A stretch of DNA of 64,000 nucleotides from positions 6,872 to 70,871 of the forward strand of contig JAXDIO010000154.1 in assembly GCA_034663965.1 (NCBI GenBank). The letters are read 5' to 3'. The translations under genes were made by a program, and so were the position numbers. The DNA comes from Thermoanaerobaculia bacterium (GTDB taxonomy: Bacteria; Acidobacteriota; Thermoanaerobaculia; Gp7-AA8). Every line of letters starts with the position of its first letter. Within the stretch, counting starts at the first letter, position 1. The notes beneath the pieces are model-generated. The model did no database searches. It was not told the origin of the DNA and saw nothing but the letters and a program-made list of their open reading frames with translations. This document shows, in pieces, positions 43,122 to 61,209 of the stretch.

Positions 43122-43850
43122 TCAACCGGAACAGCAGCCCGTGTTCGAGCAGCTGATGCTCAGATTAATCGGTGCGGCGGCGACGAACATCCAGTGGCGC
43201 GAGTCAAGCGTGTCGACGGCGGCGACGTCATTGGGCTCGCGGAGAGTGACTGGGCGGCTACTCAGTTTCTCGTAGATGAGGAAGTGGCGGTCGTCGTCCG
43301 CGAGCGTGCGGTCGTAGATCCCGTGCTCGGCCATGTTGCCGAGGACGATCTCCGTCGCGGGGGCGAGCCGCAGTGACCGCGGCGCAGAACCATCGCGCGG
43401 CTTCACATCAATGGTGATTGCACCATCGTGCGGCACGAGCATCTGCGAGACGATCGCGCTGCCGCCGGGGACGGTGTGCGCGCTGAGTGCACCGTTGCGC
43501 AGCCGGAGCCGTACGACCGCCTGCGCCGTCTCGGGATCGATCTCGAAGTTCGGATCGATGCGTTGGAGCTGTGGCAGCAGACCGTCGTGCTGCGAGGTGT
43601 CGAGCGTCCCGGCGACATCGGCCGCTTCCAGTGTGAGATCGCACTCAGGTAACGCGTAGATTCCGCGTTGGGTTTGCTCGTCCTCTGACCACCCGACCGC
43701 GGATTGAACGGCTTCCGGATCGACGATGAGCTTCGGATAGTGCGGCGCGATGCCGCCGCCCGGATCTCTTCCGTCGGGAAACAATGCTTGACGGGCTCCC
43801 GCCTCGCGATAAAAGCACACCAATCCCACGAATTGCACCTTATAGGGCAT
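43122..43850 (-). CDS. hypothetical protein with Cys-rich C-terminus (CSNTGCCSG)
   Basis: 242-aa ORF and last gene of the long minus-strand operon. No recognisable domain was found. Confidence 0.5.
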   Translation of the reverse strand: MPYKVQFVGLVCFYREAGARQALFPDGRDPGGGIAPHYPKLIVDPEAVQSAVGWSEDEQTQRGIYALPECDLTLEAADVAGTLDTSQHDGLLPQLQRIDPNFEIDPETAQAVVRLRLRNGALSAHTVPGGSAIVSQMLVPHDGAITIDVKPRDGSAPRSLRLAPATEIVLGNMAEHGIYDRTLADDDRHFLIYEKLSSRPVTLREPNDVAAVDTLDSRHWMFVAAAPINLSISCSNTGCCSG

Positions 43851-43868
43851 TACGACCTCCTTCGTTTG

Positions 43869-46800
43869 TTATCTGCCGATGATTTGGACGGCCGCCCACA
43901 TACGCGGCGGCGGATCCGGCCGATGGATCCACTCGATCTGTGTTTCGCGCAACGCGTCCGCGGGTGAACGCCGCTGCGCGAGGAAGGTATGAAAGCGGGG
44001 GAAGAATTCGGCTGCGAGCGTGTCATCGATTGGCCACAGCGTGGCGGCGACGCTCGGTACGCCGGCGGTGAGGAACGCACGTGCGACGCTGATGCTCGTC
44101 TGGCCGGGCCGCTGCCGTCCGCGCGCGGTGCCGCAGGCCGCGAGCACTACCGCGCGTGTCCGCGAGAAGCGCATTGCGGCGATCTCCGCCGCCGTCAGTC
44201 TGCGGTCGAAGCCGTCGCCGCGCAACGTGATGAGCGCCGCGTCGTTCGATTGATCCGGAGGGGCGGCGTGACCGACGAAGTGCACGACATCAGCATTCGC
44301 AGCGCGCGTTTCAAATTCGGATCGGTCGCCGCCGTGTGGAAAGAAATCCACAGCTCCGCCGTATGCCGCGACGACGGCATCCGCTTCCCGCTGCGCCGAC
44401 GACAGCGTTTCTGCCCCTGACGTCGTTGCCCCTTCCATCAGCAGCAGCCGCGTGCTTTTCGCCGGAGTGTCCGCCGACCTGGTGCCGAGCGTCCATGCGG
44501 CGCTCGGTGCGGAGACGACGGCATGATTCTCCAGGAAGAAGTGGCCGCGCCTATCGACGAGTGCGCCGAACGGCACGGCGTCGAGGATCGTATCGGGAAC
44601 GAACACCACCTTTGCGGCTGTATGGATTTTTGCCTCAACAGGACCGATGAGGTCCTGATACAGGCGCGACGCGGTGCGGCGCAATTGAGCGGAGTTATTG
44701 GTCGAAGCGGCGGTCACCACCGCGTCGGAAGCCAGGACCAGTGCGTCGCGCGAGACCAGCCGCTCGACGGATTGAACGCCCTTCTCATCGATGAGGAAAA
44801 TGATCAGTCGGTCGGCAAGCGTCGCGTACTCGATCACAACATAGCCGTGCTCCGCGATAGGATGGCTCAGCGGTGTGACGTGGTCTGCGGCGCTGATGCG
44901 CGAACGCTCCGCGTATGAGAAGGCGCCGTTCACGTCGCCTCGGCGTGATGCAAGCGAAATCGCTTCTTCGTAGAGTTCGGCCGCCACCGCGAACGTGGCA
45001 AAGCCATCATCCGCGGTGCCCACTGCGCGGCGTTGCGCTTCGATCTCGCGAATGGCCTCCTCGAAATCGGCCGAAGCTTCGTCGGTTCGTTTCACGGCAG
45101 CGAAGGCTCGCCCGCGTTGGAGCAGCAACTCCGGGAGAAACATCCGCCGGCCCTTCGCGCGGTGAAAGTCGATTGCCTGTGTCAGCAGGGGCAGCGCTTC
45201 TGCACGGTTCTGAACGAGCAACGCCTGCACGGCCAGCGAGTCCGCCTCGACACGCTCGCGGCTGGCGCGATCGTTAATGAGGTGTATGAACCCGGCGGCA
45301 TGGTGGAGATCAGCGCCGGCGGCCCCGCGGTCGCCAATCCGCGCTTCGACGCGAGCGCGGTCAAGCAAGGTCTCCGCCTGACCGAGGTTGTCATTGACAC
45401 CGCCCATTGCTTCGAGGCGGAGGCCGAGGAGGGATACGGTTACGGGCCAATCGCGATTGAGAGCGGCCCCACGCGCGGCAGCGTCGAGCGCCACGCGGAC
45501 GCGCAACGGCTCGCTTCGTCCGAGCGCCTGCAGCGCGACGACGCGATGACTCCACGCGAGGCGGCTCTCGCCGAGCCGGTCGTAGACCTCGGCCATGATG
45601 TCGCGGACGGAATTCGCGTACGCGAGCTCGCCGAGCCGTTCGAACGATGCAACGCTGCGGGAGAGAACGTCGATCGCATCGCCCCAGCGGCCGGCCGAGG
45701 CACGCGCCAGGCCGAGTTGCCATCCCACCTGTGCCTTGTAGGCGAGATACTCGGCGGGCGCCGAGGCATACAACTGCTCGAGCGTTACTCCCGCTTCGCC
45801 GACGCGTCCCTGATCGTATGCGGTGTTCGCTGCAAAGTAAGCACCGAGTAGCGCGACCGGACTGCCAGCGCGCTCGAAACCGCGACGCGCATCCCCGAAC
45901 ATCGCCTCCGCCGCGGCCGGCTGGCCTGAGCGATAGAGGCGTTGCGCTTCGCGGAATCGCAGGTGAGCCTCGGCGAGAACTGCCTTGCTCGCTGCGTCCG
46001 AGTGATCGATCACATCGATGGCGTCGGCGAGCATTTTCTCTCCGTGCAGCCTGAGGACGTCGGCGAATGCGCGCGCCACGTGGAGATGTCTTTCGGCCGA
46101 TGGGTCGCTGTTCCTTGTCGCTTCCGCCCACCGGCCGAGAATCTCGGTCTCACCCCACACTCGCGCTTCCTGGGGATGTTCCCGCGCCAGCGCACGCGCC
46201 GCGGTGGCATCGTTCTGCAGCGCTGCGTAGCGCTGCATCAACTCTTCGCGAAACCGAGTCAGGGGAGCCAATTCATGAAGATGCTCGCGAGCCTCCTGCG
46301 ACCATTGTGAATTGGCGTCCCGGGACAGGTACAGCTCCCAAGCGGTACGCGCCTGATCGCGCAGCCCGAGGCGTTCGATGATCAGTGCGCGATTGAAAAG
46401 GGCCTCCTGCGATTGAGGGTCGATGCGGAGAGCGGTATCGGCGGCGGCCAACGCCTCCGCGAGGCGTGCGCCGTCGCCTGTCTGCACTGCTGCCGTGTAG
46501 CGAATCGCGGCGAGATCGCTCCACAACTGTGCATCGCCGACCGTGGCCGCAGCCGTGGTGAGTTCGTTATCGGCTTCGCTCACTTCACCTGCAAGCAGAT
46601 GGGCGACGGCGGCGGCGTGACGGCCTTTCGCCGACGTGTCTGGGGCGGTCTCCTTCAGCACCTCGCCGGCGACACCCATCAACTGCAAGCGTTCCGGGTC
46701 CTTCAAATCATTACCACGCGTACTCGAGTGGAGCGGTGCCCATGCGAAGCCGCCCGAAAGCCGGGGTTCAATGTATCGCTCATCCCGCGGCGAGGCCGCG

Positions 46801-59991: not shown

Positions 59992-60052
59992 GCGAGGGTC
60001 GACGCCTCCTTCGCGTTACCCTCAGAGACGACCGCGGCCGTCCCTATTTTCG

Positions 60053-60274
60053 TCAGAGCGGAAGAATTTCGCCGCCGACCGTCACTACTACCGGCACGCC
60101 GTCCACTTCGTCCGGGATGTGGAGTGCCGCGGCGGCGCCGGTGACGTTCACCTTCACGCCGTACCCTCCGTCGAGCGTGGCGATACCGATGCCGCAGACT
60201 TCCATCTCATCCTGGAGCAGATCGGCGATCTTCGTTTTCGCCGTTCGAGCACGCTCCAGGGTCACTCCGGTCAC
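60053..60274 (-). CDS. small hypothetical protein (73 aa)
   Basis: It is translationally coupled (4-nt overlap) to the upstream trypsin-like gene. Its coding status is uncertain. Confidence 0.35.
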   Translation of the reverse strand: MTGVTLERARTAKTKIADLLQDEMEVCGIGIATLDGGYGVKVNVTGAAAALHIPDEVDGVPVVVTVGGEILPL

Positions 60275-61209
60275 GGTAGAAATGTAACGCCAAGCTCGGC
60301 CAGCACGTCGTCGATCTTGTTGGCATACGTAAGGCCGACATTGCCCGCGCCGCCCAGTAGCGAGCTTGCGAAGAGAAGTCCGATCGGCCGATGGGCGGAC
60401 CGGCTGAATACCAGGGAGCCGCTGTCGCCGCCCCGGCTGAACGGCTTACCATTTATCGATTCAATCTCGATCTGTCCGTTGAGGCGGATTCGCCACCGGT
60501 CGTAATTGACTGCTACGCGGTCCAATTCGAATGCGCTGATGCGGCCGAACGTGGTTCCGGTCGTCCGCCCGATCTTGCAGACCTCCGTATGTTCCTCAGG
60601 CTGAGCCGTCACCATCGACAACTTCTCCATTCCTTCCAGTGCCAGCGCGTCGTATTCGACGTCACGCACGAGTCGCGCAAAAGCGCAGTCGACGCGTACC
60701 TTCCCACGGTTCAGGCGGGGATACGTGCCGTCGAGGCGCGCGATGACGTCGCGTGGCCGTTCGCCGCCGTCGCTTGGTGAAGGCTGCACGATCTCGTCCT
60801 CGTCGTTCCCTTCATCGCTGATCGCCAGCACGTGGTTGTTCGACACGATGCCGATCGTTCCGTCATGTTTGGCGGCGAAGAAACCGAGCGTACCGGCCGT
60901 GCAGCGGTGATGTGCCACCGAGGCTCCGATATGGCAACCTGTCGCTGCCGTTGGCGCGGCGGAGCCGAGCGGAAGGATGGCTCCCGTGTAGCGAACGTCG
61001 ATCTCACCACCGGCTTTCGTGGTGAGCACTTCCAGGTCCTCGCGGATCAGGTCGTTTTCGGTCGCCGCACGGACCGCGAGCGCGAATTGTTCCGGCTGCG
61101 ATCCGGGCGCCACTCCGATTGCGAAAGAACTCTGTGAGTCGCCGTCGCGGAATGACGAAAAAAAATAGTTGAGTTCCTCTTTCAAACCGAGTGCAGATTG
61201 CAGACGCAT
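60271..61209 (-). CDS. trypsin-like (S1/chymotrypsin-fold) serine peptidase
   Basis: A GDSGS catalytic-Ser block (SRGGDSGSLVF) and a His block (HIGASVAHH) are present. It is the first gene of the co-directional cluster running to 43122. Confidence 0.7.
   Translation of the reverse strand: MRLQSALGLKEELNYFFSSFRDGDSQSSFAIGVAPGSQPEQFALAVRAATENDLIREDLEVLTTKAGGEIDVRYTGAILPLGSAAPTAATGCHIGASVAHHRCTAGTLGFFAAKHDGTIGIVSNNHVLAISDEGNDEDEIVQPSPSDGGERPRDVIARLDGTYPRLNRGKVRVDCAFARLVRDVEYDALALEGMEKLSMVTAQPEEHTEVCKIGRTTGTTFGRISAFELDRVAVNYDRWRIRLNGQIEIESINGKPFSRGGDSGSLVFSRSAHRPIGLLFASSLLGGAGNVGLTYANKIDDVLAELGVTFLP

Follow-up and report, generated by a model that had tools for sequence, protein, structure and literature searches.

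A six-gene cassette joining a ZorA/ZorB-like stator to tubulin-like and Hsp70/MreB-like NTPases in an acidobacterium: a candidate envelope-triggered defense system

Introduction

Three types of Zorya, and only three, are recognized (PMC11890865). In Zorya I and II, ZorAB senses perturbation of the cell envelope and recruits effectors via the tail of ZorA (PMC11946911, PMC11890865). Here we analyze a locus with a related stator in a 64,000-nucleotide stretch of DNA (the window) from a soil metagenome-assembled genome (MAG) of an uncultured member of the Thermoanaerobaculia (Acidobacteriota; contig JAXDIO010000154.1, positions 6,872 to 70,871). Thirteen genes, G01 to G13, were counted on the minus strand between positions 43122 and 61209 of the window. 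The stretch consists of a conserved six-gene core (G04 to G09) and lineage-specific additions. The core joins a ZorA/ZorB-like stator to a tubulin-like GTPase, an Hsp70/MreB-like ATPase and two envelope proteins, and the cassette is most likely an undescribed envelope-triggered defense system.

Several described systems share parts with this locus. The FtsZl1-vWA-OmpA system was predicted to remodel membranes (Makarova and Koonin 2010, PMC2875224). The tabulated neighborhoods of that study place FtsZl1 beside MotA/TolQ/ExbB and OmpA genes in Deinococcus (DR_0538-0536), and beside two vWA genes and a gene for a 1626-aa DnaK-like protein in Magnetospirillum. In the same entries Ser/Thr kinases are frequent neighbors of FtsZl1 operons (PMC2875224). 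A 2020 survey described tubulin-family proteins encoded together with transmembrane-anchored extracellular vWA proteins, treated HSP70-domain proteins as a separate theme, and read these sets as NTP-dependent, cytoskeleton-like assemblies in biological conflict (PMC7159879). It also described caspase-like and trypsin-like peptidases as add-on effectors in DO-GTPase/GAP1 systems (PMC7159879). In Myxococcus xanthus, a CBASS-CRISPR island is under the control of the DdvS/DdvA pair, which makes the cells resistant to phage, and promoters of DdvS have the form GTAA-N16-CGT (PMC11506125). Reports of DdvA-like anti-sigma factors were confined to Myxococcota and a single Comamonas species (PMC11506125).

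A sequence-only reading of the window had not recognized the gene combination of this locus as a described system. That judgment holds in part. There is no PADLOC model for the combination, and no description of the six genes together was found in the searchable literature, where nothing relevant linked ZorA/ZorB to tubulin or Hsp70, or PF13809 to an anti-phage role. Partners of the tubulin or Hsp70 kind are also absent from a paper on MotAB diversity. Partial precedents do exist, however, in the FtsZl1 operons of 2010 (PMC2875224), the tubulin-plus-vWA and Hsp70 themes (PMC7159879) and DdvS/DdvA (PMC11506125).

The Six-Gene Core and Its Distribution

The core begins with a polytopic membrane protein of 180 aa (G04, 57954-58496, minus strand, as are all 13 genes). 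It continues with a short GTPase of the tubulin/FtsZ superfamily (G05, 56641-57957, 438 aa), an ASKHA (Hsp70/MreB-like) ATPase (G06, 53562-56639, 1025 aa) and an exported, membrane-anchored, probable vWA protein (G07, 52030-53565, 511 aa). The last two genes encode the stator, with a ZorA-like A subunit (G08, 50117-52033, 638 aa) and a ZorB/MotB-like B subunit (G09, 49458-50120, about 220 aa). The longest open reading frame (ORF) of G09 starts at TTG 50132. Its start is most likely ATG 50120, which forms an ATGA overlap with the stop codon of G08, because the homologues begin MRRxNPWP. Entries with 100% identity to the tubulin-like protein (QOI58_1671) and to the ZorA-like protein (QOI58_1668) are present at NCBI.

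Related loci were taken from three sets and compared by tblastn with all 13 window proteins. Eleven came from one-genome-per-species contigs, 7 from exact look-ups of G05 homologues and 32 from metagenomes, the last found with a G06 profile (the loci are labeled L002, L003 and so on). The order G04-G05-G06-G07-G08-G09 is kept in every contig that is long enough, about 50 in number, and overlaps between the genes are usual. This conservation spans 27-98% identity and a host GC content of 0.36-0.71. The named hosts include Thermoanaerobaculia, Pyrinomonadaceae and one Bacteroidetes MAG. The layout of all 13 genes recurs only in L018 and L022 and partly in L002, with the accessory genes diverged to 35-65% identity. 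In a 70%-identical relative (L013/L020) only the K+ channel and the core are present, and more distant loci hold the bare core. The 18 kb had been read as a single block, and this is true of the six central genes, which co-occur in fixed order, but the remainder is lineage-specific.

The main rival to a defense function is the reading that Makarova and Koonin gave to FtsZl1 operons with vWA, OmpA, MotA/ExbB and DnaK-like genes, namely membrane remodeling (PMC2875224). The core would then be a housekeeping or conditional envelope machine in which a proton-driven stator powers a tubulin/actin-like apparatus for vesicles, envelope repair or surface organization, and the defense-like neighbors would be coincidental. 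We consider this unlikely. The rigid gene order over the whole range of identity fits it, as does a core that contains no nuclease or toxin. Searches of viral contigs and plasmids found no relatives of G06, a further point in its favor. However, a housekeeping function would hardly lead one to expect so thin and patchy a distribution. A hidden Markov model scan of 1.84 billion representatives found the G05-type family in only 77 clusters (50% identity, E<1e-30), and the hosts of the related loci span the wide GC range given above.

The Two Core NTPases

Proteins of the locus were scanned against the Pfam, NCBIfam and PADLOC libraries, with a reporting limit of E<=0.01 for G04 to G07. The direct scans recognized only the K+ pore, OmpA, two CHAT domains and zf-HC2/TPR, and gave weaker matches to Nal1_C, a sigma factor of the extracytoplasmic function (ECF) type and ZorA/ZorB. 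G04 to G07 matched nothing in the three libraries at the reporting limit, and the absence of a PADLOC match for these four proteins is a further point for the membrane-remodeling view. The domains named by the sequence-only reading nevertheless passed a profile or structure test, except that vWA and the ECF sigma had only weak, sub-threshold support. A motif search of the 13 proteins revealed no Walker A motif.

G05 has an N-terminal GTPase domain followed by a helical C-terminal half. Neither single-sequence nor profile searches of the Protein Data Bank (PDB) returned a match for G05, nor did sequence and profile searches for the membrane domain of G08, so that fold comparison was needed for both. 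By fold comparison G05 has a tubulin/FtsZ GTPase domain, and the alignment to tubulins is limited to its N-terminal 180-200 residues or so. The glycine-rich loops T1 (GGTGQ, 8-12) and T4 (GGTGGG, 154-159) are invariant in 36 homologues. The tubulin C-terminal activation domain with its T7 loop was not found by this alignment, which is confined to the N-terminal part, and residues from about 256 to 436 are predicted to be all-helical. The score of G05 against Tubulin_2 (PF13809) is 12.1 bits (E 0.11), below the gathering threshold of 27 bits. Weak Tubulin_2 matches occur in 25 of 36 family members (best 5e-6), and a precomputed PF13809 match is on record for 3 of about 113 homologues. Family members are 425-456 aa long throughout.

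G05 resembles FtsZl1 as a divergent tubulin GTPase that lacks recognizable T6-H7 and C-terminal elements and is encoded with vWA, OmpA and membrane proteins. The two differ in size and architecture. FtsZl1 has about 900-1200 aa with a coiled coil, whereas G05 has its 438 aa, a helical half and no long coiled coil. Larger Tubulin_2-like proteins form a distant second tier in searches with the G05 profile and match in the GTPase domain only. A group of proteins of about 450-475 aa (P0287-P0351) also appears in this tier, again with the GTPase domain alone (E 1e-19 to 1e-9). The second-tier proteins score marginally on Tubulin_2/Tubulin, and those of about 450-475 aa could represent sister families, likewise short and tubulin-like, that work with other partners.

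The ATPase part of G06 lies in its C-terminal half, at about 490-900. The family profile matches more than 100 Hsp70 nucleotide-binding domains in the PDB (best 2e-7). Among family members, 15 of 33 match MreB_Mbl and 10 of 33 match HSP70, and there are also matches to DDR, ParM and FtsA. Window G06 itself has no Pfam HSP70 match at E<=0.01. It carries the phosphate-1 motif DFGT at 502 and the phosphate-2 motif DMGGGT at 716. The matches cover part of the nucleotide-binding domain only, and no Hsp70 substrate-binding domain was found. G06 is therefore placed as an ASKHA ATPase without that domain, on the strength of its matches to the Hsp70 nucleotide-binding domain, MreB, ParM and FtsA and of its two phosphate motifs. 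The N-terminal 490 or so residues belong to no known family and contain the invariant cysteines Cys224, Cys227 and Cys251.

The Stator and the Envelope Proteins

G08 has a MotA/ExbB-type membrane domain (about residues 1-190) followed by a helical tail that extends for about 400 aa. It thus has the membrane domain plus long tail that mark ZorA, and ZorA is its closest relative in structure by fold comparison. This speaks against a membrane-remodeling role, as the only known role of ZorA is in defense. G09 matches Pfam OmpA (3.6e-6), PADLOC ZorB1 (1.8e-9 over residues 6-222) and MotB families of NCBIfam. Its transmembrane (TM) helix carries an invariant Asp (NPWPAFVD; NPWPxFxD in the family) and is followed by an OmpA-like peptidoglycan-binding domain. 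The Asp and the peptidoglycan-binding motifs NWxLSxxRA and NRRTT are invariant in 10 homologues.

The pair therefore compares with Zorya in its A-then-B gene order, in the ZorA-like membrane domain and tail of G08, and in the Asp-bearing TM helix and OmpA-like domain of G09. It departs from Zorya in four ways. First, ZorC, ZorD, ZorE, ZorF and ZorG are absent from the PADLOC matches of the operon genes. Second, the stator genes come last in the cassette, not first. Third, the partners are tubulin- and ASKHA-fold NTPases and two envelope proteins. Fourth, the scores of G08 and G09 lie far under the cut-offs of the curated ZorA and ZorB models (NCBIfam antiphage_ZorA_3, 24.9 bits with a cut-off of 250; ZorB2, 21.9 with a cut-off of 400). 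The ZorA-type tail of the stator also sets the cassette apart from FtsZl1 operons, as does the lack of a P-loop GTPase, and in the entries retrieved from the 2010 neighborhood table no operon joined all six partners (PMC2875224).

Both ZorA-like proteins of the window, G08 and one from a neighboring operon, end in a hydrophobic stretch (50117-50160, minus strand, …ITLWSWLFFWRHR; 37590-37652, plus strand, …AMLLIVFFFVSRG). Because of these stretches, the tips of the tails might re-insert into the membrane or lie on it.

G07 has a single N-terminal TM segment (6-24), and several homologues have lipobox-like N-termini. A metal ion-dependent adhesion site (MIDAS) motif is formed by DSSGS (70-74), T136 and TDG (155-157), and is invariant in 8-11 homologues. 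The invariant columns of the family read Q-x-L-x-D-x-S-G-S, T and T-D-G, together with many cysteines. Pfam has no match for window G07. The homologue in L004 scores 24.6 bits (2e-5) against VWA_CoxE, just below the cut-off of 26.4. Comparison of the G07 family with one bona fide vWA protein by hhalign was not significant (probability 1%), so the assignment stays motif-based and G07 is a probable exported vWA protein. A MIDAS-bearing protein (G07) and an OmpA-like protein (G09) accompany the tubulin-like gene at all loci, which is a further resemblance to FtsZl1 operons.

G04 has a signal-like N-terminus and three TM segments by hydropathy. It matched no family in the Pfam, PADLOC or NCBIfam scans. 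Its gene lies directly 5' of the tubulin-like gene at every related locus. An alignment of 13 homologues shows the conserved columns C..WD, P, Y..C and F.A.G, which include conserved cysteines.

Accessory Genes and Gene Junctions

The cassette is preceded and followed by genes of more restricted occurrence. G01 (60271-61209, 312 aa) encodes a Nal1-like, trypsin-fold serine protease. A phmmer search of the PDB matched it over residues 95-283 to NARROW LEAF 1 (NAL1), a plant trypsin-fold protease (4.4e-5). The Pfam Nal1_C match is below its cut-off (2.6e-5), and the motifs NNH and GDSG are found at 124 and 261. G02 (60053-60274) was read directly from the sequence as an ORF of 73 aa with a GTG start. 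Pfam and PADLOC scans returned no match for it. Orthologues of G01 are limited to L002, L018 and L022, and in the same three loci G02 is kept at 49-65% identity directly 3' of G01. G10 (48035-49450, 471 aa) is a cytoplasmic CHAT (caspase-like) protease (Pfam CHAT 3.4e-24; GHG at 323, NCC at 369) with orthologues only in L018 (44%) and L022 (35%). G13 (43122-43850) is an ORF of 242 aa with a Cys-rich C-terminus. It matched no family in the Pfam and PADLOC scans, and a 50%-identical orthologue stands directly after the anti-sigma gene in L022. Although CHAT and trypsin-like proteases invite comparison with DO-GTPase/GAP1 systems, membership was rejected, since the DO-GTPase and GAP1 pair that defines those systems is absent, no Walker A motif was present in the 13 proteins and no GTPase family was matched. 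These proteins also lack an FNIII-repeat component in Pfam scans.

G03 (58480-59991, 503 aa) is a K+-channel pore protein with an OmpA-like segment. Pfam Ion_trans_2 matches at 431-486 (1.3e-12), the selectivity filter TTGYGD is at 449, and K+ channels were matched in the PDB. TM segments lie within 18-168 and at 466-484. The OmpA-like segment matches NCBIfam TssL-OmpA at 299-362 (1e-4), with GHAND at 318 and SKQRADQV at 340. About 260 residues (roughly 170-430), containing the OmpA-like motif, separate the last of the N-terminal TM helices from the pore helix. In known K+ channels, it is the extracellular turret that sits between these helices. By analogy with that topology the segment would lie on the periplasmic side, and the insert may be a wall-coupled gating arrangement. 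A G03 orthologue stands 5' of the core in L003, L013, L018 and L022. A K+ channel is found between the vWA and ZorA genes in L004, where a C-terminal BACON domain takes the place of the OmpA-like insert, and after ZorB in L026/L040. The K+ channel is thus semi-conserved, present in a wider subset of loci than the other accessories but at shifting positions. Occurrence of the trypsin-like protease, the small ORF, the CHAT gene, the sigma/anti-sigma genes and the last gene is restricted to the window and its three close relatives.

A second explanation takes the 18 kb as adjacent but uncoupled systems, namely the core, the protease/small-protein pair, the K+ channel, the CHAT gene and a DdvSA-like pair with its own target or targets. 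We regard it as quite unlikely. Conservation beyond close relatives is indeed confined to the core, and in L013/L020 the locus ends with ZorB and is preceded by another kind of peptidase (S66). Only some DdvSA-like pairs adjoin defense systems (PMC11506125). However, the full set recurs in the same order in three more contigs (L018, L022 and, in part, L002) in spite of the low identity of the accessory genes, and the 13 genes are carried on one strand with overlaps or short gaps. All eight gene overlaps listed in the sequence-only reading proved real when the sequence was read again. The GTG start of G02 and the stop codon of G01 overlap by 4 nt. The junctions had been described as overlapping or at most 61 nt long, which is generally correct, but the gap from G10 to G11 measures 87 nt. 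A scan of 42.9-61.8 kb for sigma-70 promoters and terminators gave results at chance level and was uninformative.

A Probable Sigma/Anti-Sigma Module and Its Candidate Promoters

G11 and G12 form a probable regulatory pair. G11 (47111-47947, 278 aa) is a probable ECF-type sigma factor that is DdvS-like by its pairing. It scores 34.6 bits (1.3e-8) against TIGR02937, which has a cut-off of 42.9, and had no match among PDB sequences, DdvS included. Its gene has an ATGA overlap with G12, and orthologues are found in L018 and L022. G12 (43869-47114, 1081 aa) is a DdvA-like transmembrane anti-sigma factor. It has, in order, a zf-HC2/ZAS domain, a TM segment (69-87) and a TPR-CHAT region that is predicted to be periplasmic. 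The Pfam matches are zf-HC2 (2e-4), TPR and CHAT (2.3e-52), with GHA at 948 and LAAC at 991. Its best PDB match is DdvA (8rot_B, E 6e-8), collinear over 14-388 and 805-1064; PDB entry 8ROT is the DdvA-DdvS complex.

The pair resembles DdvS/DdvA in having a probable ECF sigma gene that overlaps a gene for an anti-sigma factor of about 1000 aa, with an N-terminal zinc domain, one TM segment, and TPR and CHAT regions with a His/Cys dyad (PMC11506125, PMC6061681). It also adjoins defense-type operons. The differences are low sequence similarity, a position at the 3' end of the operon and not at its head, and an acidobacterium as host. Because G12 sits in an acidobacterium, the DdvA-like TPR-CHAT type may be more widespread than reported.

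An alignment of the regions upstream of G01 at four orthologous loci revealed GTCCGTC with a preceding A-run, invariant in otherwise poorly conserved sequence. We searched for AAA(A)-N13/14-GTCCGTC. One ECF-type promoter-like motif, AAAATATCGCAACGCGCGTCCGTC (61248-61271, minus strand), lies 38 nt 5' of the G01 ATG. A second, GAAAAACGGCGACCCGCGTCCGTC (47160-47183, minus strand), falls in the sigma gene near its 3' end, 46 nt 5' of the anti-sigma ATG, and L018 has the motif at the equivalent position (20784-20808). A third, AAAAAAGGACGAGCTGCGTCCGTC (35715-35738, plus strand), is found 34 nt 5' of ATG 35772 of a TIR gene in the neighboring operon. A weaker variant that differs by one base, AAAATAGGGACGGCCGCGGTCGTC (60027-60050, minus strand), lies 36 nt 5' of the K+-channel ATG and could, as a tentative inference, serve that gene as a promoter. 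L002, L018 and L022 have the motif at equivalent places, and L022 has a full-consensus copy also before the K+-channel gene.

The four sequences that have the sigma module contain 8 motif sites, against 0.54 expected, and none of 200 simulations reached 8. The remaining 46 loci (545 kb) contain none. The count inside the window alone is not significant, and the significance comes from the cross-locus test only. From this distribution we infer that the AAAA-N13-GTCCGTC motifs are promoters for the G11 sigma factor. They resemble DdvS promoters in having an A-rich -35 element, a CGT(C) -10 element and N16 spacing (compare GTAA-N16-CGT), and differ from them in motif details. Because the same motif precedes the TIR gene, the core operon and the TIR operon appear to belong to one sigma regulon. 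The presumed regulon would thus consist of two ZorAB-type operons, not of CBASS and CRISPR. The presence of a sigma-linked motif upstream of the core, before G01 and in L022 also before the K+-channel gene, argues against uncoupled systems.

The 87-nt gap before the sigma gene (47948-48034, minus strand) contains a conserved block, TGGTG-TAT(T/C)CTCGC, in three loci (counterparts at L018 19931-20020 and L022 17823-17961). This block is distinct from AAAA-N13-GTCCGTC. Basal expression of the sigma and anti-sigma genes may depend on it as a promoter or operator of its own, and such a gap with its own conserved block speaks for adjacent, independent systems.

Genomic Neighborhood

The TIR-ZorAB-nSTAND operon (35693-43069, plus strand) converges on the cassette. 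Its likely first start is ATG 35772, preceded by the ribosome-binding site GGAGG. It encodes a TIR_2 protein (1.4e-13), a MotA_ExbB/ZorA-like protein of 413 aa whose tail is short and whose C-terminus carries a TM segment, an OmpA/ZorB-like protein (PADLOC ZorB1 3.8e-27), two proteins of 313 and 425 aa that match no known kind, and an nSTAND3 NTPase of 841 aa. A second ZorAB-like pair is thus present 7 kb from the locus. The combination of ZorAB, TIR and STAND corresponds to no Zorya type in the PADLOC matches. The 313- and 425-aa proteins were considered as tubulin-like and rejected, as their sequences contain no tubulin motifs.

A Type 6 secretion system (T6SS) cluster occupies 125-15405 (plus strand). 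Its 508-aa TssC (4773-6299), the one gene of the cluster that was checked, matches the DUF877/TssC sheath protein in a phmmer search of the PDB (3e-232), and is flanked by co-directional ORFs with sizes typical of tssB, hcp and other T6SS genes. The expectation that the cassette would be set among conflict genes was borne out, since it adjoins the TIR-ZorAB-nSTAND operon and shares the window with the T6SS cluster. Such a conflict-gene neighborhood is also a likeness to Zorya.

The T6SS cluster, with its co-directional run of ORFs around tssC, raises the possibility that the cassette senses and answers assaults from other bacteria, by T6SS or by toxins that damage the envelope, and not phage. 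Sensors anchored in the peptidoglycan, together with a vWA protein in the periplasm, would detect damage to the envelope whatever its source. On the other hand, more than 27 kb separates the T6SS cluster from the cassette, and no other locus examined has such a cluster beside the cassette. The present data give no distinction between a T6SS-type trigger and phage entry. We hold bacterial attack as the principal trigger to be improbable.

Just 5' of the operon, in a stretch of lower GC (0.59-0.61), there is an ORF with a TTG start (61450-62253, minus strand). By eye, the C-terminal part of its product resembles YD/RHS repeats (…YDNEGHPLHVKETRL…TYTWNAHGERTSW…), and it may be the remnant of a polymorphic toxin gene.

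Elsewhere the immediate flanks of the core include a PLD-like nuclease and GmrSD (L017), a Schlafen/AlbA_2 protein (L023) and a staphylococcal-type nuclease (SNase; L038). L012 has an integrase here besides a metallophosphatase and an AAA protein, L016 has structural genes of a prophage, and L032 has an FHA protein. In L006 (1383-3422 and 13505-14809), and also in L024, it is bracketed by a Ser/Thr kinase-FGE-sulfatase fusion and a second, canonical vWA protein. The FGE-sulfatase domain of this fusion is C-type-lectin-like, and the two loci are Pyrinomonadaceae-type. In L004 (3175-6611) a Ser/Thr kinase and an HtrA-like trypsin-PDZ protease are found 5' of the core. The Ser/Thr kinases near the core in L004 and L006, and the kinase and vWA flanks generally, echo the partners of FtsZl1. 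The flanking kinases match PD-T4-6 models strongly. A PADLOC census of 117 flanking ORFs told little, as generic models for Ser/Thr kinases dominated its matches.

In favor of a remodeling machine, plain housekeeping genes flank the core at several loci. Against this, defense genes or genes of the mobile-element type are its neighbors at several independent loci, and in one lineage it has acquired proteases of the CHAT and trypsin kinds as well as a DdvSA-like switch. This context suggests a conflict system, short of proof.

Proposed Mechanism

We return to the core as an envelope-spanning, ion-driven sensor/effector machine of the Zorya kind, a reading to which we give even confidence. G08 and G09 would form a peptidoglycan-anchored stator of the 5:2 type, with the invariant Asp of G09 as the ion-translocating residue. 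An insult to the envelope, by phage or by another attack, would be sensed jointly with the periplasmic vWA protein G07 and with G04, and reported by the long cytoplasmic tail of G08. The tail of the activated stator would then recruit or activate the two NTPases. Activation by envelope insult and tail-driven recruitment are proposed because ZorAB works in this way in Zorya I and II.

As output, G05 and G06 would replace the nucleases of Zorya I-III. They might assemble or remodel at the membrane site and provide a scaffold, a barrier or a membrane-remodeling activity. Our confidence in any particular output, for example filament formation or depolarization, is much lower. Abortive infection through depolarization by the K+ channel, toward which the sequence-only reading pointed, would be a conjecture of this sort. 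In or beyond the inner membrane the machine would place the peptidoglycan-binding domain of G09, the MIDAS-vWA domain of G07 and the loops of G04, and in this lineage also the insert of G03 and the TPR-CHAT region of G12. The G08 tail, G05, G06 and G10 would be cytoplasmic. The lineage of the window may add effectors to this core, namely the Nal1-like protease with its small partner, the K+ channel with its peptidoglycan-binding insert and the cytoplasmic CHAT protease. The DdvSA-like pair would probably add transcriptional induction of both the core operon and the TIR-ZorAB-STAND operon.

A bolder version, which we put forward as speculation and think doubtful, is that the core represents a fourth kind of Zorya-like immunity. 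Here an ion-driven rotary sensor of the ZorAB type in the envelope, aided by a periplasmic MIDAS-vWA receptor, would address no nuclease but would cause the tubulin-like GTPase and the actin/Hsp70-like ATPase to assemble where the attack occurs. They would form an inducible "immune cytoskeleton" able to stop or enclose the invader, and one acidobacterial lineage would run the core and the TIR-ZorAB-STAND operon as a DdvSA-type regulon.

Implications

How ZorAB transfers its signal to effectors in the cytoplasm is understood only where the partners are of the nuclease type. If a ZorAB-like stator is tied to tubulin-fold and actin/Hsp70-fold NTPases, the motor module would be capable of driving another kind of output. 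The long-predicted FtsZl1-vWA-OmpA "membrane remodeling" systems would gain a concrete and testable six-gene model, which offers the ion-binding Asp, the MIDAS site and the nucleotide-binding loops for mutation. The TPR-CHAT switch of the DdvS/DdvA type would be extended to the Acidobacteriota. With a candidate promoter motif and a putative regulon of two stator systems, coordinate transcription of a defense island would become directly testable.

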